A DNA stretch of 62,880 nt, filler included. It is 3 parts of 3 records of this genome, joined end to end, with 100 filler letters (N's around TTAATTAATTAA, not from the genome) between each part and the next. Parts side by side here need not be neighbours in the genome. Positions count along the whole stretch, not along the records: positions 20,678 to 40,229 come from SRR20825006_256; 2 more parts are not named here. One strand, given 5' to 3'. Under the pieces are notes generated by a model that saw only the letters and a program-made list of their open reading frames with translations, was not told the DNA's origin and did no database searches. The translations under genes and the position numbers were made by a program. Each line of letters begins with the position of its first letter. Position 1 is the first letter of the stretch. Shown in pieces: positions 19,935 through 38,302 of this stretch.

Positions 19935-20187
19935 GTCAAAATTGCGAAATCGCAATTGCCTGATAGCTTGTCGTTTTATCTACGCAAAAACGTCATTTTT
20001 GATGACGCTCTCTAAAATTGATGTCTTCGAAACTTCAATACCAAACGACATACGGGACGAGAACGCTCAAAATGGGCGGCACTTTCAAGTCCCGTTAAGC
20101 TCATATCATAAAGCTATATAGTCCCGAATTGTGAGCCCGCGACAAAAGGAAACTCTCGCACATTTTCACCTCCGGAATACTTCGGTA

Positions 20188-20577
20188 TTAACAAAACCGG
20201 TATCCAACCCCCGGCTCGTTTTCGATATAGGTCGGGTTCAGCGGATCATCGCCAAGTTTCTGGCGAAGGTGGCCGATATAGATACGCAGATAATGCGTTT
20301 CACTTTCCTGCGCAGGTCCCCAGATTTCGCGCAAAATCTGTTGATGGGTCACAATCCGGCCTGCGTTACGCGCCAGCAGGGTCAGGAGTGCGAACTCCTT
20401 TTTGGTGAGTTTCAATTCGTTCTCACCCTTGAAAACCCTGTGCGCGGCCAGGTCGATCTTCAGATCGCCCGAAACAATCTCGCTACTGGTCAGGCCTTCG
20501 GATTTGCGGCTGCGTAAGATAGCCCGCACCCGTGCGATCAATTCGGCAATTCCGAACGGCTTGGTCACGTAATCGTT
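20188..20577 (-). CDS. kdpE: OmpR-family response regulator, KdpE-like (5'-truncated by the contig break)
   Basis: DYVTKPFGIAEL, VTHQQILREIWGP, HYLRIYIGHLRQKLGDDP, EPGVGYRF. Confidence 0.75.
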   Translation of the reverse strand, partial: NDYVTKPFGIAELIARVRAILRSRKSEGLTSSEIVSGDLKIDLAAHRVFKGENELKLTKKEFALLTLLARNAGRIVTHQQILREIWGPAQESETHYLRIYIGHLRQKLGDDPLNPTYIENEPGVGYRFC

Positions 20578-20677
20578 NNNNNNNNNNNNNNNNNNNNNNN
20601 NNNNNNNNNNNNNNNNNNNNNTTAATTAATTAANNNNNNNNNNNNNNNNNNNNNNNNNNNNNNNNNNNNNNNNNNNN
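20578..20677. other. Artificial contig-joining spacer
   Basis: N-run containing TTAATTAATTAA (stops in all six frames); base composition changes abruptly across it. Confidence 0.97.
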
Positions 20678-20756
20678 GTTCTCGACTGCGCTCGAACTGA
20701 CATTTTTTTGACCACGCTTAGCTAATTGGGTTGTCACACCGAGCGCAGTCGAGGTG
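20678..20756. repeat. Inverted pair of REP-like elements at the contig end
   Basis: GTTCTCGACTGCGCTCGAACTGACA (20678-20702) and TGTCACACCGAGCGCAGTCGAGGTG (20732-20756) share the inverted core CTCGACTGCGCTCG / CGAGCGCAGTCGAG. Confidence 0.7.
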
Positions 20757-20758
20757 CT

Positions 20759-23700
20759 TTAAGCACCTTCTGAATATAAATTATCATTTAAAGTTTGAAG
20801 TACTGCATCTACATTGCCCTCAAAAATTTTATTAATACGGGTATAGCCGCCTTCTTCTTTAAAAGGATCATTATTTAAATCTTCTTTGGTTAAAATGGCT
20901 TCAGCGATAAGCTGTGCCTTAAAGCGATCAAGCCAGCGTTGTTGAATTTTATTCCAGTTGTGCATCGCCTGTATTTTGGCAAAGGCATTTGCGATACGCT
21001 GCTCCTGCGGAATCAAATCTACATCAAGCGCCAGGGTGCGAATATAGGCAATGATATCTGCTGCGATATCCTGATTTTTGACCTGTTTCCAGGCAGTCTG
21101 AAGCGCGCGGGTATTAAAACCTTCTGCATCCAGCTGTAATTTGAGTTCCTTCAGACTCTTACGGTCCAGAGAAGTAGGACTGGTCACAATCGCTTGTAAT
21201 GCAGCAATTTTATTCTTGTTTTCTTTTATATATTTTTTAAAGCCTTCGATATAGTCTTCCGGTTTCTGTGCCTTGCCATAATCCCGGTCTGTACCCAAAA
21301 ACTCATCTTTATGTTCGGAGACGAGTTGTACTTTCGGTCTGTAGATTTTTCGGTCTAGATAATTCCATAAGTTGGAATAGGACTGAATGATTTTTTTGAC
21401 TTCCTGCTGCGAAGCATTTTTTATGGTCTCAATAATCTCCTGAGGTTCCAATCCACCGGAGCGATAGATGAACTCCTCCATATCTTCAGCTTCTATTTTC
21501 TTGCGCTTGCGCTGTAGTTTAGATAGTAATTGCTCTACTTGAGTTTGTACCCGTTCCTCGGTCTCAATATGATCAAGCTCCTCTACCAGTTGGGTAAAGG
21601 AAGTTGAAGGATTGCTCACCGGTTTCATCTGGGTATAATCATCAAGCGCTTCGTGCACCCGAACGGCATCATAAATATCAAAAGACTCTTTCCCAATCTC
21701 ATCACATTTACGGGTAGCACGTCCCAGCATTTGCTCAAACAGAATACGCGAACTTACCCGGCGTAGGAATACCAGATTACAAATGGCCGGTACATCTATT
21801 CCAGTAGTTAGCAAGTCTACAGTAACTGCGATGTTTGGAAACTTTTCATTTTTATACCTGCGGGTTAATTCTTCAGGATCTTTAATACTTCCTGTAATTT
21901 TTTCAATAGCTCCCTGTGGTACGTCAAAGCCAATATTGTGAAACTCCTCGTGTAATTGGTTTACAATTAAATCAGCGTGAGAATCCCTTACTGCAAAAAT
22001 TAACGTCTTCTCTTCACTATTAGGGTCCAGATACTGTACCAATTGTTTGATTACCGTACGGTTAAAATCGTCGGTGATGACCAGTTTATTAAACTGTTCA
22101 ATTTCTACCAACATATCATCTTCCAGTTCAGCCAGTTCTTCAATTTTGTTGGTTTCAGGATTGAATACTTTAGGACGTTCACCTTTTTTCCAGAGAATAC
22201 CCTCTTCACTGAGTTTGGTTTTAATACGATGCGGTGGATCGTGATCTGCAAGGTATCCATCGATAACCGCTTGGCGGTAGGAATAGGAATACACAGGTTT
22301 CCCAAAGATCTGAGTGGTATGCAGTGCCGGTGTAGCAGTCAACCCAATGATGTAGGCGTTAAAGTATTCGATTACCCGTTTATACTGGCTTACATAGTCG
22401 TTTTGATCTTTAAAGCTAAAGTCTTCTTCGTCCAGTTCTTTGTCCAGATTATAACCCCGGTGCGCCTCATCAATGATGATGCAGTCGTAGGTGTCGATAG
22501 GTAATTTATCGGTGTCATTATAAAATAGGCGTTTAACCAGGCTTTGCACAGTTGCAAAATGAATGCGGGTATCGGCATCGGGTATTGAGGTTTTCATATC
22601 CTCAATTTGATACACTTCAGAAAAGGTGTTTATACCTTCAACCTTGTTGTCTTTGTAATTGCCTAAAGCTTGTTTTGCAAGGAGTCGTCGGTCTGTCAAA
22701 AATAAAATGCGCTTAAACCGGTTGGCTTTTATCAAACGGTAAGTAAGGCCTATGACTGTTCTGGTTTTACCCGTCCCTGTGGCCATCACCAAAAGGGATT
22801 TTAGCTCCTCCCTGTTTTTAATGATTTTGGTTTCAACAGCCTTAATCGCATTGATCTGGTAATCCCTTAATCCAAGTCCGTTTTTATCCTGCAGATAGTC
22901 ATAGTCGCTTTGAACCAGACGTTTATTTTCTTCTTCGGTTTTCTTATCAAATAGGTCTTTAAGACCCTGTGGGGAAAACCATCCTCTTAGTGGATAAGGG
23001 TGATTGTGATTATTGCGTACATCTAAGAACCAAATTCCGCTTTTGGTTTTAATTTGTTCCAAATAGTCCCTACCATTTGTTGAAAACAAAAAGGGAGCTT
23101 TATAGTCAAACCAGTCACCTAATAGCTCAAACTGTTCTGTTGCCTCAATACACCCGGCATAGATTTTAGACTGCCGCAAGTCGGTTGAAATGTCACTGCT
23201 GTATTTTTTTGCTTCTACAATACCGTAAAGGGTAGTATCGATAAATAAGGCGTAATCTGCCCAACCACCTTCACAAGGCCATTCTGATATAGCCATAAAC
23301 CGGCCTTTCTCGGGTAGTGTTTTATGTGTTTTGTAATTGAGTTCTGTCGTGTCAGCCTCCCATCCAGCAGCTCTCAATTGCGGGTCGATAAGGGTCAGTC
23401 GCGTATCTTTCTCGCTTAAGTTTAATTTTTTAGCAACGCGCTCACTGCGTTTTTTTCGAGAGTCGGTTACGGCCTTAGAGCTGTTGAGTTGCTCTATTTT
23501 TTCTTTGTAATCGGCCACTTGCTGTGCCAGAAAGTCTACCTGCTCTGATAGCTCTTTTACCGAGAGCTTATTTTCTTTGGTAAGCTGATAGTTGGTTTCT
23601 GTGATGTAGTCATTCTCGTAGGTTTCGTAAAACCATTTAGAAAGCTGAAAGCACTTTTTCAGAATGAACAGGGCTTCTGGTTTTGAACCGGTCCCGTCGT

Positions 23701-23980
23701 GGCTCGCTTTGTTTCCAGAGGTGCGTATGGTATGTAAAATACCTTTGATGATGTCCGGAATAATATTGCGGTGAGCAAGCTGATTGATGCGGTCTACTTG
23801 TCTGCCGCTAAATTCATCCAGTTCTTCAAAGTCCCAGATTAAAACACTAGTCTTTTCAGCCAGTAAGCGCGCTTTAGCTATTGACGAACTGGGGTCAACA
23901 GTATAAAGTTTTTCGGCAAGTGCAGCAATCCCATAAAGTTCCGGATAAACCGGCTGGAGGAAATTAAAGCTTGAGGGCAT
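20759..23980 (-). CDS. hsdR: Type I restriction enzyme R subunit (EcoKI-like HsdR)
   Basis: Nuclease motif ADYALF...VEAKK, Walker A MATGTGKT, DEAHRGY, LTATP, LLTTGIDVP, QMLGRATR. Confidence 0.93.
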   Translation of the reverse strand: MPSSFNFLQPVYPELYGIAALAEKLYTVDPSSSIAKARLLAEKTSVLIWDFEELDEFSGRQVDRINQLAHRNIIPDIIKGILHTIRTSGNKASHDGTGSKPEALFILKKCFQLSKWFYETYENDYITETNYQLTKENKLSVKELSEQVDFLAQQVADYKEKIEQLNSSKAVTDSRKKRSERVAKKLNLSEKDTRLTLIDPQLRAAGWEADTTELNYKTHKTLPEKGRFMAISEWPCEGGWADYALFIDTTLYGIVEAKKYSSDISTDLRQSKIYAGCIEATEQFELLGDWFDYKAPFLFSTNGRDYLEQIKTKSGIWFLDVRNNHNHPYPLRGWFSPQGLKDLFDKKTEEENKRLVQSDYDYLQDKNGLGLRDYQINAIKAVETKIIKNREELKSLLVMATGTGKTRTVIGLTYRLIKANRFKRILFLTDRRLLAKQALGNYKDNKVEGINTFSEVYQIEDMKTSIPDADTRIHFATVQSLVKRLFYNDTDKLPIDTYDCIIIDEAHRGYNLDKELDEEDFSFKDQNDYVSQYKRVIEYFNAYIIGLTATPALHTTQIFGKPVYSYSYRQAVIDGYLADHDPPHRIKTKLSEEGILWKKGERPKVFNPETNKIEELAELEDDMLVEIEQFNKLVITDDFNRTVIKQLVQYLDPNSEEKTLIFAVRDSHADLIVNQLHEEFHNIGFDVPQGAIEKITGSIKDPEELTRRYKNEKFPNIAVTVDLLTTGIDVPAICNLVFLRRVSSRILFEQMLGRATRKCDEIGKESFDIYDAVRVHEALDDYTQMKPVSNPSTSFTQLVEELDHIETEERVQTQVEQLLSKLQRKRKKIEAEDMEEFIYRSGGLEPQEIIETIKNASQQEVKKIIQSYSNLWNYLDRKIYRPKVQLVSEHKDEFLGTDRDYGKAQKPEDYIEGFKKYIKENKNKIAALQAIVTSPTSLDRKSLKELKLQLDAEGFNTRALQTAWKQVKNQDIAADIIAYIRTLALDVDLIPQEQRIANAFAKIQAMHNWNKIQQRWLDRFKAQLIAEAILTKEDLNNDPFKEEGGYTRINKIFEGNVDAVLQTLNDNLYSEGA

Positions 23981-24201
23981 GAATATTTGGTTAGTTTTCT
24001 AAATGGAAGGGGGACTTAAAAATATATATTATTATCAATAAACTCAAACCTAAGTAAAAAAGAATTTAGAGCGTTACGGAATTCTGTAATTCTGTTTAAA
24101 GCATTTTCTTAAATTGTATAAGATATAATCAATTAGTCGGAACCGTTTCTAACCAAAAATGTTCTAAGAAATAGGTATTTATTGCAGGCAAGATCAAACT
24201 T

Positions 24202-25197
24202 ATGAAGATGAATGTAATTCAAGCCATAAAGGAGTTTAATACAGATGCTTTACAAGAGCTATTAGATGACAGCAAAAGCTATATGGAAGTGTCTAAAAAA
24301 TTGTTTTTAAAAACACTCAAAGTAAAGTTTGAGGAGGCTAGAGAAGGAGGCTGTAATCAATTTGATGAAGTTTATTTTGGAGTTTGTCAAAGCTGTAATA
24401 AAGGATGCGAAGCAATCACTTTTTGGGCTGAAACAGGTCACTACTTGGATCTCTTTATTGAATCGAGCGACGAAAAGACTGTTGATGATATATATACCTG
24501 CTCAAGTATTGAAAACTTTATAGAATTAGACAAAGAGTTTGATTTGAGTTTTTCATTTCACCGCGAAGAGCATGTTAATTTTAAGCCTACTAAAGCGTAT
24601 ACTTCTATTCGAGATACGTTAACTCAATTTGATCGAGAAATCAAATTACAACCCAATCCTTGGCCATTAGAGGAATGCTTAACATTTTTTGAAAGGTATA
24701 GTGTTTTACAAAGTTATATGAGTACTATTGGATTATTTGATGTATTTGAATACAAGCTCTACAGTCGGTTATTTAGACTGGTAGGAGATATAGAAAATTT
24801 GGAGAACATTGTCAAGGCTCAAAGAGACGCTGTTGATGAAATACTAGACTTAGAACGCCTGACAGCAGAGCGAGAGTGGCTCATTTGGTATTACGAAAAT
24901 AAGGAATTTCAATTTGCAGCAAATGCTTTTAAGTTTAAGGAAGGGATTAAGGAACTCAGATTTCCTCAGGTGAATATTGGTCAGTATTCTTTTACGATTG
25001 ATATGAAAGGCTTTGAATATGTTTTAAAATTCTTTTTTAAAATTGAAGAGATCTACCATTACTTTATGGAAAAGTACAAACCGCAAGCCAAACACTTTGA
25101 GCAACAAGGGGCGATTAAATATGAACTAGAAACATATCTCAAATTATACGATGCGCATCAAGATGTTGTAAATAGCTACATTAATAAGCAAGCTTAG
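24202..25197 (+). CDS. Hypothetical protein with a CxxCxxxC motif
   Basis: 331-aa ORF in AT-rich DNA containing GVCQSCNKGC; no recognised family. Confidence 0.7.
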   Translation: MKMNVIQAIKEFNTDALQELLDDSKSYMEVSKKLFLKTLKVKFEEAREGGCNQFDEVYFGVCQSCNKGCEAITFWAETGHYLDLFIESSDEKTVDDIYTCSSIENFIELDKEFDLSFSFHREEHVNFKPTKAYTSIRDTLTQFDREIKLQPNPWPLEECLTFFERYSVLQSYMSTIGLFDVFEYKLYSRLFRLVGDIENLENIVKAQRDAVDEILDLERLTAEREWLIWYYENKEFQFAANAFKFKEGIKELRFPQVNIGQYSFTIDMKGFEYVLKFFFKIEEIYHYFMEKYKPQAKHFEQQGAIKYELETYLKLYDAHQDVVNSYINKQA

Positions 25198-25490
25198 CAT
25201 ATTGTAAAGATCCCATCATCTAGGGAAGATTTCCTCAAATAAGATGTTAGCAAAATCCGCAAACTGTGCTTTGTAATTGATATAAGGCGGTGTTACTATA
25301 TAAGACTTCAAATTTAAAGTGTATAGCTATTTCAGGACTAACACCTAGAGATGTATAACCACATCAGGATTAAAGGACACTCAGATAAGGCTTTAATGCA
25401 GCTACTTGGTTCACCCGAGGATACTGCATAGATAAAGCATAGATAGAGTATGGATACAGTATGAAGAGCTTATGAAAGGAGTAGGCTGAA

Positions 25491-25742
25491 TTAAGATGTC
25501 TTTTTAAAGAGCGATTTCAGCGGAACTTTTAGCTCTTTTGCAATTAGTAATAGAGTTTCGAAAGTAGGATTTGTATTGCCTCGCTCTATTTCACCTATTG
25601 TTTTTTTCGCGTGTCCTGTTCTGAGACCGAGTTCTTCCTGAGAAATAGGTTTGTTGGTTTTAGGATTAATCACAAATTGACGTAAATCAGCAATTCTTGC
25701 TCCTAGTTCTTCTTTCTCTTTTTTGAATTTTATATTGGACAT
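25491..25742 (-). CDS. XRE/Cro-family helix-turn-helix regulator
   Basis: LGARIADLR...ISQEELGLRTG...IGEIERGNTNPTFETLLLIAKELKV; divergent from the sigma gene. Confidence 0.9.
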   Translation of the reverse strand: MSNIKFKKEKEELGARIADLRQFVINPKTNKPISQEELGLRTGHAKKTIGEIERGNTNPTFETLLLIAKELKVPLKSLFKKTS

Positions 25743-25775
25743 CAAGATAAAATTCTTAGTTTATCTTAATATTTT

Positions 25776-25795
25776 AGGATACATATATGTATCCT
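25776..25795. promoter_or_regulatory. Perfect 20-bp palindrome, candidate HTH operator
   Basis: AGGATACATA/TATGTATCCT, ~35 nt upstream of the HTH start and between the divergent genes. Confidence 0.65.
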
Positions 25796-25828
25796 TTTGT
25801 TATATTTATTATATTTACCTCATAATTA

Positions 25829-25836
25829 TATATTTG
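25829..25836 (+). promoter_or_regulatory. Bacteroidetes -7 promoter element (TAnnTTTG) facing the sigma-dCas12f operon
   Basis: TATATTTG matches the TAnnTTTG consensus. Confidence 0.55.
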
Positions 25837-25882
25837 CGAAACTTCTTTAAGTAACATATTAGAAGCATTCGCTTTGAATCTC

Positions 25883-25991
25883 GCTATCAAAAACTGGTAA
25901 TTTTTATGCAACGAGAGGATAAGCCGGGATGCTCACGACCCGGGCGTGGGCTCTCACTTATTGTTGCGTGGTATACCAGTGCCCTGATAGC
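25883..25991 (+). ncRNA. Long nested stem-loop in the leader of the sigma gene (structured leader or ncRNA)
   Basis: Nested pairings GCTATCA/TGATAGC, ACTGGTA/TACCAGT, GCAAC/GTTGC, ATAAG/CTTAT, GCTCACG/CGTGGGC; a U-rich run follows at 26011-26021. Confidence 0.55.
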
Positions 25992-26181
25992 ATAAGTTGA
26001 GACCTGCGCCTTTTCTTTTTTCTCAGCACTTCTCAACATTCAAGCCGTGTTTCTTCCTTAACGAAGGCGAGCAGCCACACCCCAATTTCAAAATTGGCAA
26101 CTTGCCGGGTACCCCTATGCCTACAAGCAAGCCAAGAACCCCCTAAACTAATGCTTATGTAAGAACTAAAACGGGTTAAGA

Positions 26182-26970
26182 ATGAAACGATTTTCAGCAG
26201 ACAAACACTATACAGGGTTCAAACACGGCTGCCCTAGGGCCTTCAAAGCCATTTATACCCAATACCATCGGCAGATCTATTGGATGGGACGGAGTTTGAT
26301 CAAAGATGTATTTGTGGTAGAAACCTTGGTACAAGACACTTTTCTCACCCTATGGGAAAAACGCGAAAGCATTGAGTCTCCACAACATCTGGTCAATTTT
26401 CTATATACCGTCATTTTCAATGAATGCAAATGGTATTATGCGCGGCCTAAAAATCAGTTTAATCGGGAGTGTTATGCTTTAGAAAAGATAGACAACTTCC
26501 AAAGCTTTATGCTGGGCTATGATCCCACAGCGGTAGACATACATTTAGAAGACCAGCAACAACAGGAAAAGGAGTATGAGCAGGTGGTTAAGGTATTGCC
26601 GCTTTTGGGTGCCCCACGCCAACGCCTTATCGAGCTTTGTTTGCAACACGGTTTTAAATACAAAACCATTTCCGAGCAGTTGGGCATCAGCATCAAAGAA
26701 ACCAGTAATACACTCCAGCAAACCATCGAAGAGATCAAAAACATTTTGCATCAAGGCTATGTACTCCAACCTCAGGAAACTGAGCCAATGCAAAACGGAG
26801 AAGGGCAGATGACTGAGCAGGAAGCTCGTGTACACGCACTTCGTTGTGAGCAGCAATACTCGTTTGCCCAGATCGCTAACGAACTCCAACTTTCCCAAAA
26901 GGAAGTACATCGCGCCTTTACCACGGCCTATAAGCTCTTACAGCAGCACGAACACTTACAATCCGCTTGA
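26182..26970 (+). CDS. rpoE: Atypical ECF (sigma-70 family, RpoE-like) sigma factor with an extra C-terminal HTH
   Basis: Region-2-like AFKAIYTQY...LVQDTFLTLWEKR, region-4-like RQRLIELCLQHGFKYKTISEQLGIS, and a second HTH YSFAQIANELQLSQKEV. Confidence 0.8.
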   Translation: MKRFSADKHYTGFKHGCPRAFKAIYTQYHRQIYWMGRSLIKDVFVVETLVQDTFLTLWEKRESIESPQHLVNFLYTVIFNECKWYYARPKNQFNRECYALEKIDNFQSFMLGYDPTAVDIHLEDQQQQEKEYEQVVKVLPLLGAPRQRLIELCLQHGFKYKTISEQLGISIKETSNTLQQTIEEIKNILHQGYVLQPQETEPMQNGEGQMTEQEARVHALRCEQQYSFAQIANELQLSQKEVHRAFTTAYKLLQQHEHLQSA

Positions 26971-28070
26971 TGATGAACAACAAGACCTTAAGCCTTACCC
27001 GCAAGATCCAACTCAAGGTAGATTTGCCTACCTATGAAGAGCGTAAAGAAGCGATTGGTAAACTCTACCAATGGCAAAACCGCTGCTTTAAAGCGGCCAA
27101 CATCATCGTGACCCAATTGTACTGCCAGGAAATGATCAAGGAGTTCTTTTACCTGACCGAAGACATCCAATACAAACTGGCCGATCAAAAGAAAGACGAA
27201 AACGGTATCTTAAACCGTTCGCGCATCAACACCACTTATCGGGTAATCGCAGACCGCTTTAAAGGAGAGATCCCGATGGAAATCTTATCCAACCTCAATC
27301 GGAACTTAGAAAGTAGCTTCAATAAAAACAAACCCAAATATTGGAAGGGCGAGCGCTCCCTCAAAAACTTCAGGCGGGACATTGGTTTTCCGTTTCCTGC
27401 GCGCTGTATGTGGGGCTTCAAGCACGACCCCGAGCGTAATGCCTTCTGTTTTCGCTTATTTCAGATTCCCTTTTGCACCTATCTGGGCAGGGACTTTTCC
27501 GATAAGCGGGACCTCTTGCATCGGGCGGTAAAGGGGGAGGTGCGCCTACGCACTTCAGAGATCAAATTGACCGATACAAAGATCTTTTGGTTGGCGGTAT
27601 TTGATATTGAGCAAGAGCAGCACGCTTTAAAACCGGAGGTGATTGCCGAAGCTTCCTTGTCGCTGGAGCATCCCATCAGCGTCAAAGTGGGCAGCAACAG
27701 GTTAAACATCGGGACCAAAGAAGAATTCCTCTACCGTCGCTTGGCCATCCAAGCCGCCCGGAAGCGTGCCCTGGCCGGAACCGTAAATTCTCGAGGTGGT
27801 CACGGCCGCACCCGCAAGCTTAAAGCGGTGGAAAAATATAAGGACAAAGAGACCAAGTACGTCAATCAGCGCTTACACGTTTACAGCAGAAGACTCATAG
27901 ACTTTTGTGTCAAACACCAAGCAGGCACACTGATCTTGATTAATCAAGAAGACAAGATCGAAGCCGCTAAAGAAAATCAATTTGTCCTCAGAAACTGGAA
28001 CTATTACGAACTCACTAAAAAAATAGAATACAAAGCCAAAAAAGCAGGAATTGAATTGGTCATAGATTAA
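26970..28070 (+). CDS. Nuclease-dead Cas12f/TnpB-like RNA-guided DNA-binding protein (dCas12f)
   Basis: Cas12f-like elements LTRKIQL, GHGRTRKLK, HVYSRRLIDF and LRNWNYYELTKKIEYKAKKAGI. The RuvC-I position reads ASLSL (no Asp) and RuvC-II reads LILIN (no Glu); the protein ends before the zinc finger and RuvC-III. Start overlaps the sigma stop (TGATG). Confidence 0.8.
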   Translation: MMNNKTLSLTRKIQLKVDLPTYEERKEAIGKLYQWQNRCFKAANIIVTQLYCQEMIKEFFYLTEDIQYKLADQKKDENGILNRSRINTTYRVIADRFKGEIPMEILSNLNRNLESSFNKNKPKYWKGERSLKNFRRDIGFPFPARCMWGFKHDPERNAFCFRLFQIPFCTYLGRDFSDKRDLLHRAVKGEVRLRTSEIKLTDTKIFWLAVFDIEQEQHALKPEVIAEASLSLEHPISVKVGSNRLNIGTKEEFLYRRLAIQAARKRALAGTVNSRGGHGRTRKLKAVEKYKDKETKYVNQRLHVYSRRLIDFCVKHQAGTLILINQEDKIEAAKENQFVLRNWNYYELTKKIEYKAKKAGIELVID

Positions 28071-28094
28071 ACCTATTGATTGATTTTATGATCA

Positions 28095-28182
28095 GAGGGT
28101 GCTTGTACACCCGTAATGTGAGGTCACGGGCACTCACCAAATGCAAAAGCATATACAACGGCGTGTTCATCTACACTTAGAA
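28095..28182 (+). ncRNA. Putative guide RNA 1 (scaffold 28095-28165 plus variable 3' guide TTCATCTACACTTAG...)
   Basis: Three-hairpin repeat unit starting 25 nt after the dCas12f stop and repeated 160 nt later. The guide 3' end is approximate. Confidence 0.7.
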
Positions 28183-28254
28183 AACAAGAGCTTTTTAGTG
28201 AAGCACATAAAATAAAAATGGTTGAGTTTTTAATCTTGAATTTGGAATATAATC

Positions 28255-28344
28255 GAGGGTACTTGTATACCCGTAGGGTGAGGCTGAAGCGCTCACTAAA
28301 TATCATACCGATATATACAATGGCGTGAGTTAGTTATCTTTAAA
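28255..28344 (+). ncRNA. Putative guide RNA 2 (scaffold 28255-28327 plus variable 3' guide AGTTAGTTATCTTTA...)
   Basis: Second copy of the scaffold with compensatory changes; similarity to copy 1 ends sharply after GGCGTG. Confidence 0.7.
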
Positions 28345-28499
28345 CCGTTTTAAAATGATTGAACACAAAAGGTCCTAGTTTTATCCAGCCTTAATACTAT
28401 TAAGAATTATCCCTTGATAAACTACACGTTTGGTTAATTGTAAAGGTTGGTTTAGGTTCCGAATGAAGTGTAATCAACAGCTTATTTTTTAAAGAAAAC

Positions 28500-29093
28500 A
28501 TGAAAAAAATCATACTTCCATTAATACTTATCCTAGTTATATATCACTCTTGTTTAGATCAAAATCAAAATCAGTCTAGTGCAATTGATACAGGGTTATT
28601 TAAAGAAGTTCAAAGTGATAGTATAAGCTTTAAAATCCCTGATACACTAAACGTTACACAAAATAAAAGGATAAACGCTTTGGTGCTCTTAAACCCTCAA
28701 AGTTCTAAATCATATTACGCGCTTATTTTAAATCCCGCAAAAGAAATAAGAACTACTGAAGAATACATTAAAGCAGTATTTTCAAACTTAAAGAGGGATT
28801 ATGGTAATTACGAGTATAGTTTAACAAAGGTACACTTGGACACGGGAGCTCATTTTTATTATATAAATGTCCTTATCGAAGATGATAAGGAAACGTACCG
28901 CATACACAATTTGATCTATTTAAAAGATGATCATTTTTATGATTTCAGTTTGCGGGGTTTAAATAAAGACTTTCAAAGTAAAGACTACGAGCGCTTATTT
29001 AAAAAAATAGTCTTTAGTACTAGAGTAAACAAAGAAGAGTTATTTCGTGCAGAAAATACCAAAGTAGTAAGAGAGGAGAATGTAGTACTGTAG
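28500..29093 (+). CDS. Hypothetical lipoprotein
   Basis: MKKIILPLILILVIYHSC signal peptide II-like N-terminus; 197 aa. Confidence 0.65.
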   Translation: MKKIILPLILILVIYHSCLDQNQNQSSAIDTGLFKEVQSDSISFKIPDTLNVTQNKRINALVLLNPQSSKSYYALILNPAKEIRTTEEYIKAVFSNLKRDYGNYEYSLTKVHLDTGAHFYYINVLIEDDKETYRIHNLIYLKDDHFYDFSLRGLNKDFQSKDYERLFKKIVFSTRVNKEELFRAENTKVVREENVVL

Positions 29094-29210
29094 AATCCTT
29101 TAGTATCTGGAAGTTTATAGATATAATGTAAAAGGATTGATAAATACCTAATATGCAACTTCTCATAAGGAAAGAGGTCTATTGATTTGTATTAACCTAC
29201 CAATTCTATT

Positions 29211-30971
29211 ATGCCTTATATTCGATCCTTCCTTGTGCTGCTATGTGTAGTAATCAGTATTCAATCTGCTTTTTCCCAAGAAAAATACAATCTGAATTTT
29301 AATGATTTTGATCCAAACGAAGAGCGCTTGCCTGAAGGCTGGTTCGTATGGGGTGATTTTAAAACCGTTGTTGGGGATCGAGAAAATCCAAACAATGCAG
29401 TAGGTAAAATAGTATCCGACAAAAAAGGAAAATTTGGATGCATTGCCTATCAAATTCCAGCAAATTATATCGGAGATACCATTGTACTATCAGGTAAAAT
29501 CAAGTATGAAAAGGTCAAAAATTATGTAGGGCTGCTCATACGTATTGATGGTAAAAAATCAGTAGCCTTTAGAAGTATGCAATACTTGCAAATGCGGGGT
29601 TCTAGGGATTGGAAAGAATATTCGATAAAACTTCCTTATCCTACGAACGCCGCAAACATCTATGTGGGCGGAATTTTAGGCAAAGGAGGTACGGCTTGGT
29701 TTGATGATTTTAAGGTGACTATAGACGGAAAAGACATCCAGACCCTTGAAGAAACACCAGTTCAGACTTTAGCGCAAGTAGATAGTAAACAGCTACAACA
29801 GGCGATCAAGCAAGCTTCAAGTCCGCTGGATTGGTCTACAGATGCTCAATTGAGTAAAGATCTGGATGCATTAATTGAGAAGGTGGGAGATAAGCGCATT
29901 GTAGCCTTAGGAGAAAGTACGCATGGCACTTCCGAATTTTACAAGTTAAGAGCTTTACTTACGAAGAGATTAGTAGAAGAAAAGGGCTTTAATCAGGTGG
30001 TTTTAGAAAACCCCTATGACAATATCGAACGTTTAAATATGGAATTGAATACCAAACTGCTTGACAGTCTAATCAAGAGGGACCTGTTCTCCATTTATCA
30101 GACCGAAGAGGTGAAATCCTTTTTAGAATGGTACAAAAACAAGCGTACTAAAGTTGATGTGGAATTCAAGGGATGTGACGATTCCTATTGGTCTTTCCTT
30201 GAAGTCTTGACCGATCGATTAAAAGATATTCCGGATAACCAGTTGGAGCTACAAGTACAACAGCTTAAAACCCACGTATCGAAATCAACTAAAGCTAACC
30301 GCAAGAAAGAAATTCGGTTCAACAATTTGATCTATGAGGATATCGTCCAAATCGAAAAGTATCTAAAAGACGCCAATATGCTTGATGAGGATCTTGAAGA
30401 GCTCCTGTTCAACGGGAAGAATTCCTATATCAATTATGTGCACATAAAAAATGGCAAACCCATTCAAAGTCGGGACAAAATCATGGCAGATCGAATAGCG
30501 TATTTGGCTAGAGATAATAATAATAAGATCATTGTCTGGGCGCATAATGCACACATTGCTAACGAAGTCATAGCAGACAACGAAATAGGTGTTATGGGGA
30601 GAGATCTAAAAGCAGTCTTTGGGGAAGATTACTACACAATAGGGCAAATGACTTCAGAAGGGACCTATTCCTATATGGAGGAGAAGTTGATCAATGCGGA
30701 TAAGGATTATTCCGAAATACTTAAAACAGCAGTATTGCAGCAGCAAGACGAACTCTTATGGGAAGATCTATTCGCTGGGTGTTCTGAAGCGTTTATACTA
30801 GATCAAAAAGAACTAAAGAAGTCTTTTGATAAACGTATTATGGGACTTACCAAGTTGGTTGGTTATGCCAAAGAAACTGAAAAAGACCAGTATTTCTTAC
30901 CGCTTATGGAATATTACGATTCCCTGATTTACATTAACAAAACCCAAGCGACTTCACTTCTTTTTGATTAA
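29211..30971 (+). CDS. Secreted erythromycin-esterase-family protein with an N-terminal beta-sandwich-like domain
   Basis: Signal peptide; RIVALGESTHGTSEF, RDKIMAD and IIVWAHNAHI motifs. Confidence 0.85.
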   Translation: MPYIRSFLVLLCVVISIQSAFSQEKYNLNFNDFDPNEERLPEGWFVWGDFKTVVGDRENPNNAVGKIVSDKKGKFGCIAYQIPANYIGDTIVLSGKIKYEKVKNYVGLLIRIDGKKSVAFRSMQYLQMRGSRDWKEYSIKLPYPTNAANIYVGGILGKGGTAWFDDFKVTIDGKDIQTLEETPVQTLAQVDSKQLQQAIKQASSPLDWSTDAQLSKDLDALIEKVGDKRIVALGESTHGTSEFYKLRALLTKRLVEEKGFNQVVLENPYDNIERLNMELNTKLLDSLIKRDLFSIYQTEEVKSFLEWYKNKRTKVDVEFKGCDDSYWSFLEVLTDRLKDIPDNQLELQVQQLKTHVSKSTKANRKKEIRFNNLIYEDIVQIEKYLKDANMLDEDLEELLFNGKNSYINYVHIKNGKPIQSRDKIMADRIAYLARDNNNKIIVWAHNAHIANEVIADNEIGVMGRDLKAVFGEDYYTIGQMTSEGTYSYMEEKLINADKDYSEILKTAVLQQQDELLWEDLFAGCSEAFILDQKELKKSFDKRIMGLTKLVGYAKETEKDQYFLPLMEYYDSLIYINKTQATSLLFD

Positions 30972-31053
30972 TAACTCAGAATACCTGTTTGATAGATAGG
31001 TTTCAGTTTTACAATTCAAATAGTTTAAGCAAGAAGGAGGAAGCCGTAATATA

Positions 31054-31875
31054 CTACCATTGAAAACTGGCGAATACTGGTAAATGATCTGACGCATAGT
31101 GTTCATCAATTACTAGATGGTTGTTCAGCTTGAAAAAAGACTTTGGTTTAAAGGCTATAAAATCAATAGCCTTTGACGGATTTTCTACGGGGATTGTGGG
31201 CGGACAAGAGGAGCAGGTTCTTGTAAATACGCTATCGAGTGAGGTAATTACTGGACTGTTTGCTACGGTATTAAAATCTCCAGCCACCAGCACAGGTTGG
31301 TTTAAATTGGTAGTGATATTTAATAGTTCTTCTATTTGTAAGATCCGGTTGGTATCTTCTTTCTGAGAATCTAAATGGGTACTTGCAAACCAAATGGTCT
31401 GCGCATCCGGTAACTGGATCAATGACAGCGCCAAAACTCGAGGTTCTCCGTGAGTTTTAGGTTTTGAAGGAAGTTTATAGACCTTAGATGCTATAATAGG
31501 GAATCGAGAAAGAATAGCAACACCGTATGCTCCGTTTTGAAAATCTATTGACTTACCAAAGAATACCTGCATTCCCAGGGCATCTCCAATCTTTTGGGCT
31601 TGATTTCCAGAACCCGAGCGCTCCGTATCTGAATCGATTTCTTGTAAAGCAACGAGATCTGCATCACTATCTTTGATGACTTGAATGATGGCTGAGAGAT
31701 CTATACTGTCCTTATGCATCGGCGGATTCGCGTGATGAATGTTATAGCTTAAGACCTTCAGTTGATTGGAGGAGTTTCCAAAAGTAGCCGTGGAGCGCTC
31801 TTGAGAAAGCATTGGGTAAAAGGATAAAAAAAGGATTATCTTGAAGATAATCCCTTTAGTCATTTTTGTATGCAT
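31054..31875 (-). CDS. Endonuclease/exonuclease/phosphatase (EEP) family protein
   Basis: VLSYNIHH, VALQEID, STHLD, AGDFN, IDFI, ASDHLPV; start uncertain (31893/31875/31863). Confidence 0.88.
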   Translation of the reverse strand: MHTKMTKGIIFKIILFLSFYPMLSQERSTATFGNSSNQLKVLSYNIHHANPPMHKDSIDLSAIIQVIKDSDADLVALQEIDSDTERSGSGNQAQKIGDALGMQVFFGKSIDFQNGAYGVAILSRFPIIASKVYKLPSKPKTHGEPRVLALSLIQLPDAQTIWFASTHLDSQKEDTNRILQIEELLNITTNLNQPVLVAGDFNTVANSPVITSLDSVFTRTCSSCPPTIPVENPSKAIDFIAFKPKSFFKLNNHLVIDEHYASDHLPVFASFQW

Positions 31876-31905
31876 AGTGTTGTATGGGTTCATTAGGTAA
31901 AGCTA

Positions 31906-32763
31906 TTAGTTCTCTGTTAGTTCAACTTTTGCAATCACAGGAAAGTGATCAGAGATATAGCGATCTCCGCGTTGTCCATCTAAAATTTGTAAAGTTAAGG
32001 GTTGCACCCCTCCCGAGTAGAATATGTTATCTATTCTACTATCTGAGGTTCTTCCTGTTGCATCCCATCCATTAGCACTGTATTCGGGACCATAGACCTG
32101 ATCTGCATCTAAAGTAAGGTACGGATCTTTCAATCCGGAGCTTAAGAGGGTAGCGATAGCCTCACTTTTCGGCGAACTATTAAAATCACCCGTGAGTAGC
32201 ACGGGGGAGGTTCCGGCAATTTCCTTAATTTTTTGAGTAAGTAAAGCTGCACTTGCTATTCGAGCTTGTTTTCCTCGGTGATCAAAATGCGTATTGAAGT
32301 GATAGAAGCTTACTCCAGAGTGTTTATCTTTAAATAAAGCCCAAGTTACAATACGGGGTAAAGCCGCGTCCCAACCCTTGGAAGCGACAACATCTGGTGT
32401 TTCTGAAAGCCAAAAGGTATTGCTATCTAAAACTTCAAAGCGCTCTTTTTTATAGAAAATCGCAGAGTACTCTCCTTGAGTTGCACCTTCGCGACCTATA
32501 CCTACGTGCGCGTAATAAGGTAGGAGTACTTCCATATCCAAAAGTTGGGTATGGGTGACTTCTTGGGTACCAATAAGGTCTGCTTGATAAAACCGAATAC
32601 TGTGGGTGAGCCAGTCTTTACGCTGCTCCCATATATTGATCCCGTCTTCAGGACTATTATAGCGTATATTGAACGAACTTATTACAAGTTCCCTCTTGCT
32701 TTTCTGAGCATTTACACTGCTGAATAGGAGCAGTGCAAATGCAATAGATACTAGGGTTCTCAT
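31906..32763 (-). CDS. Secreted EEP-family protein
   Basis: SFNIRY, GTQE, FWLSETP, NTHFDH, GDFN, SDHFPV; ATG overlaps the susD stop (TAATG). Confidence 0.9.
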   Translation of the reverse strand: MRTLVSIAFALLLFSSVNAQKSKRELVISSFNIRYNSPEDGINIWEQRKDWLTHSIRFYQADLIGTQEVTHTQLLDMEVLLPYYAHVGIGREGATQGEYSAIFYKKERFEVLDSNTFWLSETPDVVASKGWDAALPRIVTWALFKDKHSGVSFYHFNTHFDHRGKQARIASAALLTQKIKEIAGTSPVLLTGDFNSSPKSEAIATLLSSGLKDPYLTLDADQVYGPEYSANGWDATGRTSDSRIDNIFYSGGVQPLTLQILDGQRGDRYISDHFPVIAKVELTEN

Positions 32764-34502
32764 TAGTTCCAACCAGGGTTTTGTTCCAGATTAGGATTGA
32801 GTTGTAATTCTATACGCGGTATAGGGTAGAGATAATCCTTGTTTTCATCAAAACTTCTGTTGTTAAAATCCGGATGAGGATCAATCAATCCATTCATGTC
32901 CAAGGTGAAATCTGAATCTAAGCGATAATATTGAATTCCGCTTATTGGATTCGCTGGTCGTTCTCCTTCATAAAGCACGACATTTATAGCACCATCTCCG
33001 GTAAGGTCATATTCACCTGGTCCGGGGAAGTATAAACCTCGAATAGGTTGGGTAAGGGTTTGGCCGGCTTTCCAGCGCACCACATCATCCCATCTGAAGT
33101 TTTCCATATACAATTCAATGCGTCGCTCTCGTCTTATTTCTAAAATAACACCAGTATTTGCTCCGGTTACATCGGGATACTGAGCTGCCATAAACGAATC
33201 TGGTGCTGCATTTGCTGTATCTAGATTCAAATCAGGCATACCAACGCGTTGTCTTAGTAAATTAATGGAATTATTGAGATCTTCTTGAGATAGCGTTCCT
33301 AATTCAGCTTTAGCTTCTGCATAATTCAAGAGCACTTCTCCAAAACGATAGATAGGAAGATCCGTAATAGACTGCCCATTGGTATCATAAACCGGCTCGG
33401 TCACATACTTTATGATTTGATAACCGGTAACTGTAGCTCCAAGATTAGGAGCCAACTCAATACTTTGTCCTTTTCGGGTATATCCTGGAGTGCGTATCGT
33501 CTGTGCCAAACGAGGGTCTCGATTTTGAACTTCTTCAGTAAAGGACAGTTGATTATAGCCTGCTCTATCTGTAAAACGCGTTCCATCAGCATTCAGATAG
33601 CTATTTACAAGATCTTTCGGCATACCTGGACGACCATACGAACTTGTCGTGGTGTAGTAATTTACATTATGACCAATATTAAGATCTTCCGAATAGGCGC
33701 GGGCTAAGATCACTTCAGTTTCATTAGCATCATGTGAATTAAACAACTCTAGATAATCTTGTTCCGGATTTCCTGTGCTGTAAATCTGATAAGGAGAATC
33801 TTCAATCAATGCAGTTGATGCTGCTACAGAGGCTTCTAGGTATTTTTCATAACCGTCAATCCCTCTATATTTCTCGTAAGTTCCCTCATAAAGTCCGATC
33901 CTTGATTTTAAAGCCAAAGCCGTATACTTAGTCACTTCATATGTATTTTGCTCTTCATTGAGGTTTTCAATGGCCCAGTCTAGATCTTCAAGCATTTTAT
34001 CAACAACATACTGTCTTGAGTCTCTAGGTTTGGTAAGGGCTTCAGTATCGTCTGGAGCTATGGGAGCGTCATACCAGGGTAAAGCACCAAAGCGTTGGAA
34101 CTTATCGAAGTAAAACCGCGCTCTAAAAAAGCGAGCTACCCCTCCATAATGGGCTTTAGCCGCTTCATCATCAGATTTTTCGTATTCCTGAAGAAAGAAA
34201 TTGATGTCGCGCAAATATTCCCAATTCCAACCGCCTCCGGTCGTAGGTACTAGCCTTGCGCCACGCATTTCTTCACTCAATTCAGTTTGTATAATATTGT
34301 CTGTACTCGCTTCTCCGTTGTAGATGGAAGTACTGGGCCACATCCGGTAAAACCCGTTGGTGTACAGTTGAAGATCACTAGCGGTATTGAAAAAGGTTTC
34401 AGCAGTAATTTCAGATAGCGGTTGCTTGTCTAAAAAATCATCACTGCACGAACTGATGCTGGTTGCTACAAGCAAACCGGCAAGTATATGTTTAACTTTC
34501 AT
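32763..34502 (-). CDS. susD: SusD/RagB family nutrient-binding lipoprotein
   Basis: Lipobox SSC-SDDFLD, RFGEVLLNYAEA, IRRERRIEL...RWDDVVRW, YLYPIP...NPNLEQNPGW. Confidence 0.93.
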   Translation of the reverse strand: MKVKHILAGLLVATSISSCSDDFLDKQPLSEITAETFFNTASDLQLYTNGFYRMWPSTSIYNGEASTDNIIQTELSEEMRGARLVPTTGGGWNWEYLRDINFFLQEYEKSDDEAAKAHYGGVARFFRARFYFDKFQRFGALPWYDAPIAPDDTEALTKPRDSRQYVVDKMLEDLDWAIENLNEEQNTYEVTKYTALALKSRIGLYEGTYEKYRGIDGYEKYLEASVAASTALIEDSPYQIYSTGNPEQDYLELFNSHDANETEVILARAYSEDLNIGHNVNYYTTTSSYGRPGMPKDLVNSYLNADGTRFTDRAGYNQLSFTEEVQNRDPRLAQTIRTPGYTRKGQSIELAPNLGATVTGYQIIKYVTEPVYDTNGQSITDLPIYRFGEVLLNYAEAKAELGTLSQEDLNNSINLLRQRVGMPDLNLDTANAAPDSFMAAQYPDVTGANTGVILEIRRERRIELYMENFRWDDVVRWKAGQTLTQPIRGLYFPGPGEYDLTGDGAINVVLYEGERPANPISGIQYYRLDSDFTLDMNGLIDPHPDFNNRSFDENKDYLYPIPRIELQLNPNLEQNPGWN

Positions 34503-34513
34503 AAGGATGTTTT

Positions 34514-37500
34514 TTAAAATTTAAGAGATAAGCCTAAAGAATAGGTTTCTGAAAATGGATTGGTTTGAGCTGTTCCTCGATTTGCAGAGGTAGAGGGACT
34601 GTTTAAATTCACAGAAGCACTTGCGGCTTCCGGATCGATATAATCGGTCAGTTTAGAAAAGGTCAGAAGGTTTTCGCCACTGAAGTAGATACGCAGTTTC
34701 GTCGCAGCGGTTTTTGATATCAGTCCGTCAGGAAGTGTATAGCCTAAGGTCAGATTTTTTAGTCTGAGATAGGCCACGCTTTGTAAGTAGCGATCATTTA
34801 CTTTTTCTAAAGAACCACCAAGCGCGATATAACCGTAATTTCGGGGATAGTAAGCATCAGTATTTTCTGGGCTCCACATATCGTCTACCATATCTTTTCT
34901 GATATAAGAATTATAGGGTCTGTTGTAAGGTCCCCAAAACATTCGAGAGTCTGAATTAGGATACCAATCTTGTTTCCCTACACCCTGAAAGAACACAGAA
35001 AAATCAAAACCTTTCCAATTTGCATTAGCCAAAAAGCTGTATAAATATTGCGGAGCAGAATTCCCGATAATTTCACGGTCTCCAGGATTGTCCACGGTAT
35101 TTTCACCTTCTCCTATATAGCCATCACCATCAAGGTCTCTGTATTTTACATCGCCAGGTTGTAGCCCTCCTCCTGAAGTGATTCTATTGGAAACAAAACT
35201 CTGGTCTGCGTGATTGGCAATCTCTTCTTCGGTTTGAAAAAGTCCATCTATGCGATATCCCCAAAGTTCCCCGATGGTCATCCCTTCATAAAAGTCTACC
35301 AGACTACGGTTAGGATTATCAAAGTTGGTTATTTTGGTTTTTGAGTTGGAAAGGTTCGCAGTTACAGACCAGCTGAACGTATCTTCAGCTAATTCAAAAT
35401 AGTCATTGTAGCTCACAGAAAGTTCGAATCCTTTGGTTCTTAAATCTGCAGCATTTTCTAAAGGAGATGCAGTACCTAATACACTGGGTAGTGTAGCTCC
35501 AGGTGAAAGCATTCCTTCGGTATCTCGTTGAAACCAATCAAAAGAAGCAGATAAGTGGTTGTTGAAAACCCCTACATCAACCCCGAAGTCAAGCGTACTT
35601 ACTTTTTCCCAGGTGATCTCGCTAGGGTTTAAGGCTGGAGATTCGATATAATTTAAGCGACTTCCATTAAGAACATAGTCATACAATCCATTTGGCAAAG
35701 TCGGGAAATAAGCATAATTGCTTATGTTTTGATTTCCTAGAGAACCATAGGAAGCACGGAACTTCAGAAGATCAAAGGTTTCTCCTGTGGCATTTTCAAT
35801 AAATTGCTCTTTGTTTGCTAACCAAGCCCCTGAAAAGGAAGGGAAGAATCCCCATCGGTAGGCAGATGGAAAACGTGATGTTGCATCATATCTACCATTA
35901 AACTCAGCTACATATTTATCTTTATAATCATAGGATAGTCTATAAAATAAACCTTGAAGCGCCCACTCTGATGCACTACCAGAGGTGGTAGGATTCGATG
36001 TTGCCAGTCCTAAGGAGTTTAAGTCATTTGAAATTAAATTCTGCTTACTAGCGTTGATGCTCTTGGTAATGAACGTTTCTTGGTTGAAACCAATAGTAGC
36101 TTTTATATTATGATCTCCAAAGTATCCTTTGTACTCGCCATACACGTTGAGCGCATCGTATTTGCTTTCAGTGCGATATTCATTAAGATAATCATTTCCC
36201 ATTAGATCCAATTGTTCAGGATAAATCGAGTAGGGGATACGGGTAGAGCGTTGAAACCTGCTATACTCATTCCGTCTAATAGCATAGTTTGCATTTAAGG
36301 TTACCCCTTTGATGGGTTTAAGTTCTACAGAAGCGATGTTACTAAACTCATTATTATTGGTTTGCTGTTTAGTGGTTCCTTGTAATAGTCCGGCATACAC
36401 ACCATCACCAATCGTATAGTTATTCAGTTCCGTACGCCATAAGGCACCTCCATCAGGATTTACAGGAACATAGGAAGGCAGTGCGTGCACCCATATTAAA
36501 CTTCCCCAAAGGTTGCTGTAGTTTCCATATTGGCTACCACTGTGCTCCAGATCTTCTGAGCTGTTGTACTGCATATTGTTGGAGAACGATAACCAATCTG
36601 TGGCTTTGATATCAATTTTGCCACGTAAATTGTACTTATCGTAATAGTCGTCCTGAACTTTCAGGATCCCTTGAGATTGAAAATTACGATAGGAGAAATA
36701 GGCTTTGATTTTTTCAGAACCTCCGGAAACAGAAGCATTATAAATTTGTGTTGGATAGGTCTTTCTAAAAAAAGTATTCCACCAGTCCGTATAGCCGTAG
36801 TGCACATATTGATCACGCCCATTGCGCTGGTCAATAATTACACGGGCTAGAGAAGGGTCTTGGGAAACTTCATAAAGCGCCTGCATATCTTCTTCCGTAT
36901 AACCGGTATAAGACGCTCCGCTGTTATTTCTAAAAGCTTCATCCACGATGGAAACTGCTTTAAAAGGATCAGTAAGAAAATCGGTATTCATCGTTGGGGA
37001 GTTAATAGCTGTGGTCACTCCCAGATTCACTTGAACACTACCTTTATCCGCATTTTTAGTGGTTACTAAGACCACACCAAAGGATCCTCGCGCTCCATAG
37101 ATCGCGGCAGCTCCGGCATCTTTTAGAACACTGATTGATTCAACATCACTTGGATTGAGGTTGCTCAAGCTGCCTTCTATACCATCAATAAGAATCAGTG
37201 GTGTTCCGCCATTAATAGAGGTAAAACCTCTGATGTTAATACGAGGTTCTGCACCTATTTTACCGGTACTTTGAGTAACATTAAGTCCGGGACTTAGACC
37301 CTGAAGACTTGAGGTAACGTCGGCTACGGGTCTCTGTTCTAAATTTTCAGTGTTGACCGTGCTAACTGCGGTAGAAAGCTTTTCTCGGCTGGTTTCACCA
37401 TAACCTACGACAACCACTTCATCAAGTGCATTATTATCTGCTTGTAATTGAACTTGGATCGGGGCCAAAGATTCAATGGTGATTTCCTGAGTGGTAAATC

Positions 37501-37795: not shown

Positions 37796-37839
37796 CAGAA
37801 TAGAACTATGGATTTGTACTGTAGTTTTAATTTTAATGA

Positions 37840-37865
37840 CCCGTTTCTGTTGCACCAGAAACGGG
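37840..37865 (-). promoter_or_regulatory. 10-bp hairpin in the susC 5' leader
   Basis: Minus strand CCCGTTTCTG-GTGCAA-CAGAAACGGG, 45 nt upstream of the ATG. Confidence 0.6.
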
Positions 37866-38053
37866 CTTTAAATTTTTGGGCTAATTCAAAATAATGTGTC
37901 TTATAATAGGGTCTTTAGGAAGTTAGAATTCTATTTGAAGACAAAAGAAGGGCTTATTTGATTCAATTGTATTAACTGAATTTTATCTAAAACTTAAATG
38001 GTAAATGGTTTTAGTTTGAAGCTTAACTTAGAGTTTACAAAGCATTAGATTTG

Positions 38054-38078
38054 TAGAAGTTGAGTTAATCAACTTCTA
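38054..38078. repeat. 10-bp inverted repeat upstream of susC
   Basis: TAGAAGTTGA-GTTAA-TCAACTTCTA. Confidence 0.55.
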
Positions 38079-38172
38079 TATTATTTTTATAACACTGTAG
38101 AATCCAACGTCACTAAAACTATTACTACAACAATGAACAGTGACAGCATTTGTTTTTTTGAAGAACTAAAAC

Positions 38173-38263
38173 GTGGATTAATTATATCCGTGTATTGTGA
38201 GTAAAAGAATATGCTCATCAAATGCAAAAGCATATAATGGAGTTGAGGGAACTTTAAAGTTTC
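38173..38263 (+). ncRNA. Putative guide RNA 3, a diverged stand-alone copy of the dCas12f scaffold
   Basis: Exact 18-nt match CAAATGCAAAAGCATATA (38219-38236 = 28138-28155) and the same three hairpins in the same order. Confidence 0.6.
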
Positions 38264-38302
38264 AAATTATATTTAGAGCATAAAAATTTAAAGAACTTCT
38301 TT

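Follow-up and report, generated by a model that had tools for sequence, protein, structure and literature searches.

What is the function of a protein that belongs to the Cas12f/TnpB lineage and keeps an uninterrupted reading frame, but appears to have lost the catalytic residues of its RuvC domain? This question was raised by positions 26182-28070 of a 62.9-kb stretch of DNA consisting of three joined contigs (hereafter the window), where a first-pass annotation made from the letters alone had described such a protein next to a sigma factor gene. The results presented here indicate, with a probability of roughly 0.93, that the open reading frame (ORF) codes for dCas12f, which in a dCas12f-sigmaE system for RNA-guided transcription is the subunit that binds DNA with the guide, and that it lies on a genome fragment of Leeuwenhoekiella (Flavobacteriaceae). 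The system is already known from an earlier bioinformatic description, from genetic and biochemical experiments and from structures solved by cryo-EM, and a Leeuwenhoekiella system is among those tested. The reference is the system of Flagellimonas taeanensis (Fta), described by Hoffmann et al. (Nature 2026, PMC13472631) and Xiao et al. (bioRxiv 10.1101/2025.06.10.658880), with the structures 9n9c, 9n9m, 9n9o and 9n9q. To judge from the sequence, all parts of the published system are present: an hth gene, a structured non-coding RNA (ncRNA), overlapping rpoE and dcas12f genes and two tandem guide RNA (gRNA) genes.

The plus-strand ORF is uninterrupted over 26967..28070 and encodes 367 amino acids from a TTG or 366 from the ATG at 26970. 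The gene, dcas12f, is placed at 26970..28070 (plus strand, alternative TTG start at 26967), residues are numbered from the ATG, and the product is assigned as a nuclease-dead, C-terminally truncated Cas12f. When compared with PDB chains, it matched best 9n9c_A, 'Nuclease-deactivated Cas12f' (365 amino acids), with E 3e-164 over residues 4-366 against 2-364, and with E 3e-213 in a profile search. The next matches were Al3Cas12f (9nzr/9nzo, E 5e-41), CnCas12f1 (8hr5), AsCas12f, OsCas12f and Un1Cas12f. Foldseek, run with an AlphaFold2 (AF2) model, put 9n9m (67% identity) and 9n9c (63% identity) at the top. At E<=1e-10, 925 of 3655 candidate proteins belonged to the family. The best 120 matches were all 360-374 amino acids long, and the 40 homologues aligned here were drawn from them; mean column identity in this alignment was 77%. 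A protein of L. blandensis carrying no annotation is 98% identical to the dCas12f of the locus.

The gene upstream, rpoE (26182..26970, plus strand), codes for an extracytoplasmic function (ECF) sigma factor of 262 amino acids with an extra C-terminal domain at approximately residues 200-262. Its product matched a single PDB chain, the RpoE of 9n9q (9n9q_C, E 3e-68, residues 14-260), and in Pfam it matched Sigma70_r2, r4_2 and, at residues 209-249, a second region-4-like model. The residues by which Fta sigmaE contacts dCas12f are R218, F225, H240 and F243 (10.1101/2025.06.10.658880). They align with R221, F228, H243 and F246 of the window protein, so all four published contacts are conserved. 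As the first-pass annotation had noted, the two genes are coupled: the TGA of rpoE (26968-26970) and the ATG of dcas12f (26970) share one base, and in all ten related loci the sigma ORF stops a few bases at most from where dcas12f begins. When 26182-28070 was compared with the locus of an uncultured Flavobacteriaceae metagenome-assembled genome (MAG; L007), dCas12f was found to be 96% identical and the adjacent sigmaE only 69%. This uneven divergence of the two sequences hints at recombination within the operon. Co-evolution of dCas12f and sigmaE has been reported (PMC13472631).

A profile search of the window with nhmmer yielded exactly two gRNA copies, at 28086-28187 and 28248-28350, directly behind dcas12f. 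gRNA1 (28094..28179, plus strand, 5' end predicted), delimited by nhmmer and covariation, is composed of a scaffold (28094-28165) and the 14-nt guide TTCATCTACACTTA (28166-28179). gRNA2 (28254..28341, plus strand), delimited by nhmmer, alignment and covariation, is composed of a scaffold (28254-28327) and the guide AGTTAGTTATCTTT (28328-28341). The same profile found 29 further copies in nine of the ten related loci, 31 in total. The scaffold ends in ACAAC(G)GCGTG and is followed by variable sequence, the first 14 nt of which constitute the guide in the published system (PMC13472631). Two L. blandensis gRNAs carry guide 1 unchanged, and in a paralogous copy the identity stops after exactly 14 nt; guides related to guide 2 occur in L001 and L007. 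RNAalifold predicted three hairpins for the gRNA alignment, and 6 of their 15 pairs vary in a compensatory way. Single-sequence folds of gRNA1 and gRNA2 were not more stable than shuffled sequences (z -1.6 and -0.5), thus support for the scaffold comes from covariation. Neither a CRISPR array nor a tracrRNA is part of the locus, and the profile search of the 62.9 kb returned just these two gRNA copies. Contigs of one RNA-labelled marine metatranscriptome and of two libraries that are probably DNA, 90-99% alike, span parts of the ncRNA region, rpoE, dcas12f and gRNA1; contigs of sequencing runs cannot show transcription, RNA ends or levels, and no inference was drawn from them. Three DNA runs contain 91-100% of the sequence words of the locus.

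For the Fta system it has been reported that dCas12f is RNA-guided and binds DNA beside a target-adjacent motif (TAM), 5'-G, which is strictly needed, that it recruits sigmaE via the clade-specific C-terminal domain, and that dCas12f-sigmaE with the cognate RNA polymerase gives transcription ~46 bp downstream without promoter motifs (PMC13472631; 10.1101/2025.06.10.658880). Binding, recruitment and activation are ascribed to the window proteins by analogy with this orthologue, to which they are tied by homology, locus anatomy, selection and conservation of interface residues. A dCas12f dimer would bind one gRNA of ~86-100 nt encoded just downstream, and the complex would recognise a short TAM and form a 14-bp R-loop. 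The co-translated ECF sigma factor would then be docked, by its extra C-terminal domain, on the truncated, dead RuvC domain. RNA polymerase would be recruited in this way, and transcription would be expected to start ~46 bp downstream without promoter motifs.

It was important to consider the opposite mode of action, in which dCas12f-gRNA blocks promoters as in CRISPR interference and the neighbouring sigma factor is independent. Nuclease-dead TnpB and Cas12 relatives that repress have been described (10.1101/2023.11.30.569447; PMC13622181), and a separate, CRISPR-associated dCas12f cluster may repress (PMC13472631). One such group, TldR, resembles the locus protein in that it stems from the TnpB/Cas12 lineage, has been domesticated, is nuclease-dead and binds DNA with a single guide resembling omega-RNA. 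TldR proteins differ in that they repress and have no sigma partner, whereas the locus protein belongs to a Cas12f-derived, sigmaE-coupled activator clade. Repression is very unlikely here, because by its E value of 3e-164 to Fta dCas12f the protein groups with the sigmaE-linked clade, the sigma factor bears the clade-specific C-terminal domain with all four contact residues, rpoE and dcas12f overlap, and the 62.9 kb hold two gRNA copies and no CRISPR array.

The catalytic positions were compared with those of nuclease-active Cas12f proteins (Al3Cas12f 9nzr, CnCas12f1 8hr5, AsCas12f 8j12, Un1Cas12f 7c7l/7l48). These share the REC/WED/RuvC architecture of the locus protein and match it with E 5e-41 to 6e-10 in HMMER and with probability 1.00 in Foldseek. 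They differ from it in keeping G-x-D-x-G, in a C-terminus longer by 60-90 residues that contains the zinc finger and RuvC-III, in having CRISPR arrays and tracrRNA, and in cutting DNA. In RuvC-I, IAEASLSL aligned to I-V-G-V-D-L-G-(I/L/M) of the nucleases Al3Cas12f (9nzr/9nzo), CnCas12f1 (8hr5) and 9nzp, which amounts to changes of G to E, D to S and G to S; in every printed alignment the Asp fell on Ser. Among the 40 homologues this position is occupied by S (36), T (3) or C (1), and by D or E in none. The substituted motif A-E-A-S-L-S is invariant or nearly so, and the E and S that flank the Asp position are invariant.

At the other end, dCas12f terminates four residues past AGIEL, whereas the nucleases extend past the aligned end by 92 (9nzr), 71 (8hr5), 68 (9nzp), 61 (8j12) and 66 (7c7l) residues. 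Of the 60 positions of the Pfam Cas12f1-like TNB model only the first 20 were matched, by residues 346-365 and with an E value below the cut-off (0.058), and the NCBIfam model guided_TnpB was matched over positions 64-338 of 389, with 55 bits against a cut-off of 100. The early stop and the partial matches to the two models indicate that the zinc finger and RuvC-III, with its Asp, are absent.

The situation is less clear for RuvC-II, where the first-pass annotation had found TLILINQE in place of I-x-x-E-x-L. HMMER alignments set the nuclease Glu against I324, N325 or E327, and E327, which lies in the motif I-N-Q-E-D, 0-3 residues from the expected place, is retained in 36 of 40 homologues. In the AF2 model a strand stops at I324 and the next helix begins at E327. 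This placement, as read from the model, agrees with the published position of the lid motif, immediately behind strand beta-4 (10.1101/2025.06.10.658880). By alignment, the RuvC-I Asp and RuvC-III are certainly lost, and loss of the RuvC-II Glu is ambiguous. The earlier observation that all catalytic positions had gone was therefore largely right and stands for two of the three, including the replacement of G-x-D-x-G and the stop before the zinc finger.

The retained E327 is also the starting point of another explanation, according to which the protein is still a nuclease that uses this Glu with acidic residues from elsewhere, e.g. from the sigma C-terminal domain filling the truncated RuvC. 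In one HMMER alignment E327 aligns with the catalytic Glu of CnCas12f1, and the sigma C-terminal domain is said to 'complement' the truncated RuvC (10.1101/2025.06.10.658880). The features of nuclease-active type V-F Cas12f, namely an intact D-E-D RuvC triad, a zinc finger and a CRISPR array, were not found at the locus. Since an acidic RuvC-I residue is present in 0 of 40 homologues and RuvC-III is deleted, and since the Fta complex transcribes from the DNA that it binds and was deposited as nuclease-deactivated, with no cleavage assay noted in the available parts of the Fta papers, residual nuclease activity is hardly to be expected.

The dcas12f gene is under purifying selection. The ratio of nonsynonymous to synonymous substitution rates (dN/dS) was 0.030 against L. 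blandensis MED217 (dS 0.35) and 0.025 against a Flavobacteriaceae MAG locus (dS 1.12); dS was saturated in the other eight of ten comparisons and no ratio was taken from those. In the same two comparisons rpoE gave 0.15 and 0.06, respectively. With dN/dS at ~0.03 dcas12f is not decaying, and an intact dcas12f frame of 365-367 amino acids was found in ten of ten related loci from named genomes. A decaying TnpB/Cas12f pseudogene with a frame open by chance, to which the loss of the RuvC-I Asp, the zinc finger and RuvC-III and the score below the guided_TnpB cut-off might point, can be dismissed, being refuted by the selection data and opposed by the intact frames, by the uniform length of the best 120 matches, and by the 77% column identity with its invariant substituted motif. 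Domestication for DNA binding rather than pseudogenisation, as proposed in the first-pass annotation, is thus supported: the dN/dS values show no neutral decay, and experiments on the close F. taeanensis orthologue have demonstrated its RNA-guided DNA binding (PMC13472631). That annotation had seen the coupling to the sigma gene; it had not named the function itself, in which sigmaE and RNA polymerase are recruited so that transcription starts.

Any search for guide targets has to take into account how the window is composed. Its three contigs are separated by linkers of the form N44-TTAATTAATTAA-N44 at 20578-20677 and 40230-40329, and the GC contents of the left, middle and right pieces are 0.536, 0.395 and 0.554. 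The middle piece (20678-40229, SRR20825006_256, 19.6 kb) carries the dCas12f locus; it is Leeuwenhoekiella-like and shares 93-97% identity with L. blandensis. For the right piece, identity of 93-99% was found to a 7.1-Mb genome (G001), and the left piece matched neither L. blandensis nor G001. The stretch therefore mixes organisms, no gene outside 20678-40229 can count as a neighbour of the dCas12f locus, and its true context is the 19.6 kb only. Genome G001 was rejected as a proxy for the locus as it matches only 40330-62880, and guide hits there are meaningless.

When the guides were searched against the window with <=3 mismatches and by a seed-weighted scan, only the gRNA genes matched well. 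In the proxy genome L. blandensis MED217 (<=2 mismatches), guide 1 had an exact 14/14 non-self match at G002:C1:1550981. An exact 14-mer is expected ~0.03 times in the 8.4 Mb of the two strands (our own arithmetic, assuming equal base use). Matches of 13/14 were found at 1538391 and 1545111, and a 12/14 neighbour at 1538412. All these sites fall between genes and within 12.6 kb of each other, and all are on the sense strand, with a start codon 68-124 nt further on. The genes downstream include a response regulator followed by a 188-amino-acid ORF, a secreted protein after a gene that, by its motif, is presumably of the LytTR type, and a small ORF with a membrane protein. These genes fit 'two-component system', one of the published target categories (PMC13472631). 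The L. blandensis guide GGCTTACTTTTAAA gave matches at or near control level in L. blandensis, with no convincing intergenic site.

Several observations weigh against assigning the locus to an RNA-guided transcription system. Under the published target rule, an exact 6-nt seed (PMC13472631), neither guide 1 nor guide 2 had a target in the 62.9-kb window, which thus offers no regulated gene to name for this organism. No guide match was found upstream of susC in the adjacent susC/susD operon. Guide 2 had no convincing target in the window or in L. blandensis, its AT-rich patterns occurring at about control level. Every L. blandensis site of guide 1 (L066, L069, L070) has CCA on its 5' side in place of the 5'-G. 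Finally, the AF2 model of dCas12f, built from the 40-sequence alignment, is poor in its N-terminal half (mean pLDDT, the predicted local distance difference test, 56; template modelling (TM) score 0.42 to 9n9m). Because of this weakness the fold evidence rests on sequence, and the Foldseek TM-scores, which were low, were left unused for residue equivalences.

The CCA flank may have a counterpart in the protein. Of the Fta dCas12f residues found stacking on the TAM region or touching it (10.1101/2025.06.10.658880), M85, H110 and Q144 are changed in this lineage to I, R and R, respectively; the TAM-duplex and lid residues Y89, R90, S106 and Y344/Y345 (Fta numbering) are conserved in the dCas12f of the locus. 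It can be suggested, tentatively and with the odds against it, that the L. blandensis-type dCas12f in the window reads a TAM other than 5'-G, apparently 5'-CCA, going with M85I, H110R and Q144R, and that guide 1 switches on two-component, LytTR and secreted-protein genes, not the adjacent susCD. When the CCA flank was checked in L. marinoflava, using that species' own first guide, only the gRNA gene and coding-region matches were returned.

Upstream of rpoE, and divergent from it, lies hth (25491..25745, minus strand), encoding an 84-amino-acid Xre/Cro-type helix-turn-helix (HTH) protein (Pfam HTH_3, E 6e-11). An 18-bp perfect palindrome, GGATACATATATGTATCC, read from the sequence at 25777..25794, is located 31 bp upstream of the hth start. 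The Fta HTH protein binds to inverted repeats that lie at a distance of 27 bp from the start codon of its gene (PMC13472631), and by analogy the palindrome is the probable auto-operator of HTH. A palindrome of differing sequence occupies the same place in four Leeuwenhoekiella loci: at 25777-25794 of the window and in the same columns of L001, L003 and L005 there are perfect or near-perfect palindromes ~30 bp upstream of hth. Their sequences are consistent with operators diverging together with their HTH proteins.

Between hth and rpoE lies an intergenic block (25796-26092) that shares 87.6-92.4% identity with its counterparts in L001, L003 and L005, although two of these loci (L003 and L005) are only ~73% identical over a stretch that includes coding sequences. 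The hth-associated ncRNA region within it (25842..26040, plus strand, ends approximate) had a fold z of -4.47, and none of 200 shuffled sequences was as stable. It is preceded by a TAnnTTTG-like box, TATATTTG, which fits the Flavobacteria -7 motif; TAnnTTTG is the Flavobacteria promoter consensus quoted in PMC13472631. An Rfam search of 20000-40000 at E<=1 returned no match. In the published loci a divergent hth and an hth-associated ncRNA have the same arrangement (PMC13472631), and the intergenic block, more conserved than the coding sequence and strongly structured, matches that ncRNA. L. blandensis has a second rpoE-dcas12f locus (G002:C1:3579317-3581984). Its coding sequence is 64% identical to that of the window and its upstream ncRNA-like stretch 91% identical to window 25807-26014, thus between these paralogous loci the ncRNA is far more conserved than the proteins.

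On the 3' side the gRNA genes are followed by an ORF at 28500-29093 that is lipoprotein-like and has no match in Pfam, by an ORF of the erythromycin-esterase family at 29211-30971 (Pfam E 1e-27) and by a susC-susD-EEP-EEP operon (31054-37855, minus strand). The latter encodes a SusC TonB-dependent receptor of 1113 amino acids, SusD of 579 amino acids and two proteins of the endonuclease/exonuclease/phosphatase (EEP) family. The operon is convergent with the dCas12f locus and 97% identical to L. blandensis. The segment 28345-31054, with the lipoprotein-like and erythromycin-esterase ORFs between the gRNAs and the operon, is missing from L. blandensis, which at this place has five gRNA copies over ~2.3 kb instead. 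The R subunit of a type I restriction enzyme (ResIII, EcoEI_R_C; 20759-23980, minus strand) is encoded at the left end of this Leeuwenhoekiella-like contig; L. blandensis lacks the gene at this position.

Set beside the Fta system, the locus has the same order of hth, ncRNA, rpoE-dcas12f and gRNA and proteins of nearly the same length (dCas12f 365 amino acids in Fta and 366 here, sigmaE 261 and 262). Both dCas12f proteins carry Ser for the RuvC-I Asp and have the same C-terminal end, and they are about two thirds identical (67%, Foldseek). The sigmaE C-terminal domain contacts, the lid tyrosines, the equivalents of Y89/R90/S106 and a single-guide scaffold with a 3' guide of ~14 nt are shared as well. 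The two systems differ in the number of gRNAs, two in tandem here and one in Fta, and in that the candidate L. blandensis targets of the shared guide carry 5'-CCA and precede two-component and other genes, whereas Fta has 5'-G and susCD. The dCas12f of L. palythoae (Lpa), from the same genus, has several tandem gRNAs with similar scaffolds, and the Lpa system has been tested by RNA immunoprecipitation sequencing (RIP-seq) and chromatin immunoprecipitation sequencing (ChIP-seq) (PMC13472631).

The dCas12f-sigmaE system is a natural counterpart of CRISPR activation, in which a guide RNA and not a promoter sequence sets the start site of a sigma factor, and the window adds one more orthologue to it. 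The finding matters for annotation, as ORFs of the dCas12f type are entered as 'hypothetical protein' or 'transposase' in the source databases. If the CCA motif and the other regulon were true, TAM and regulon would diversify within the dCas12f family, and both leads could guide follow-up in Leeuwenhoekiella.

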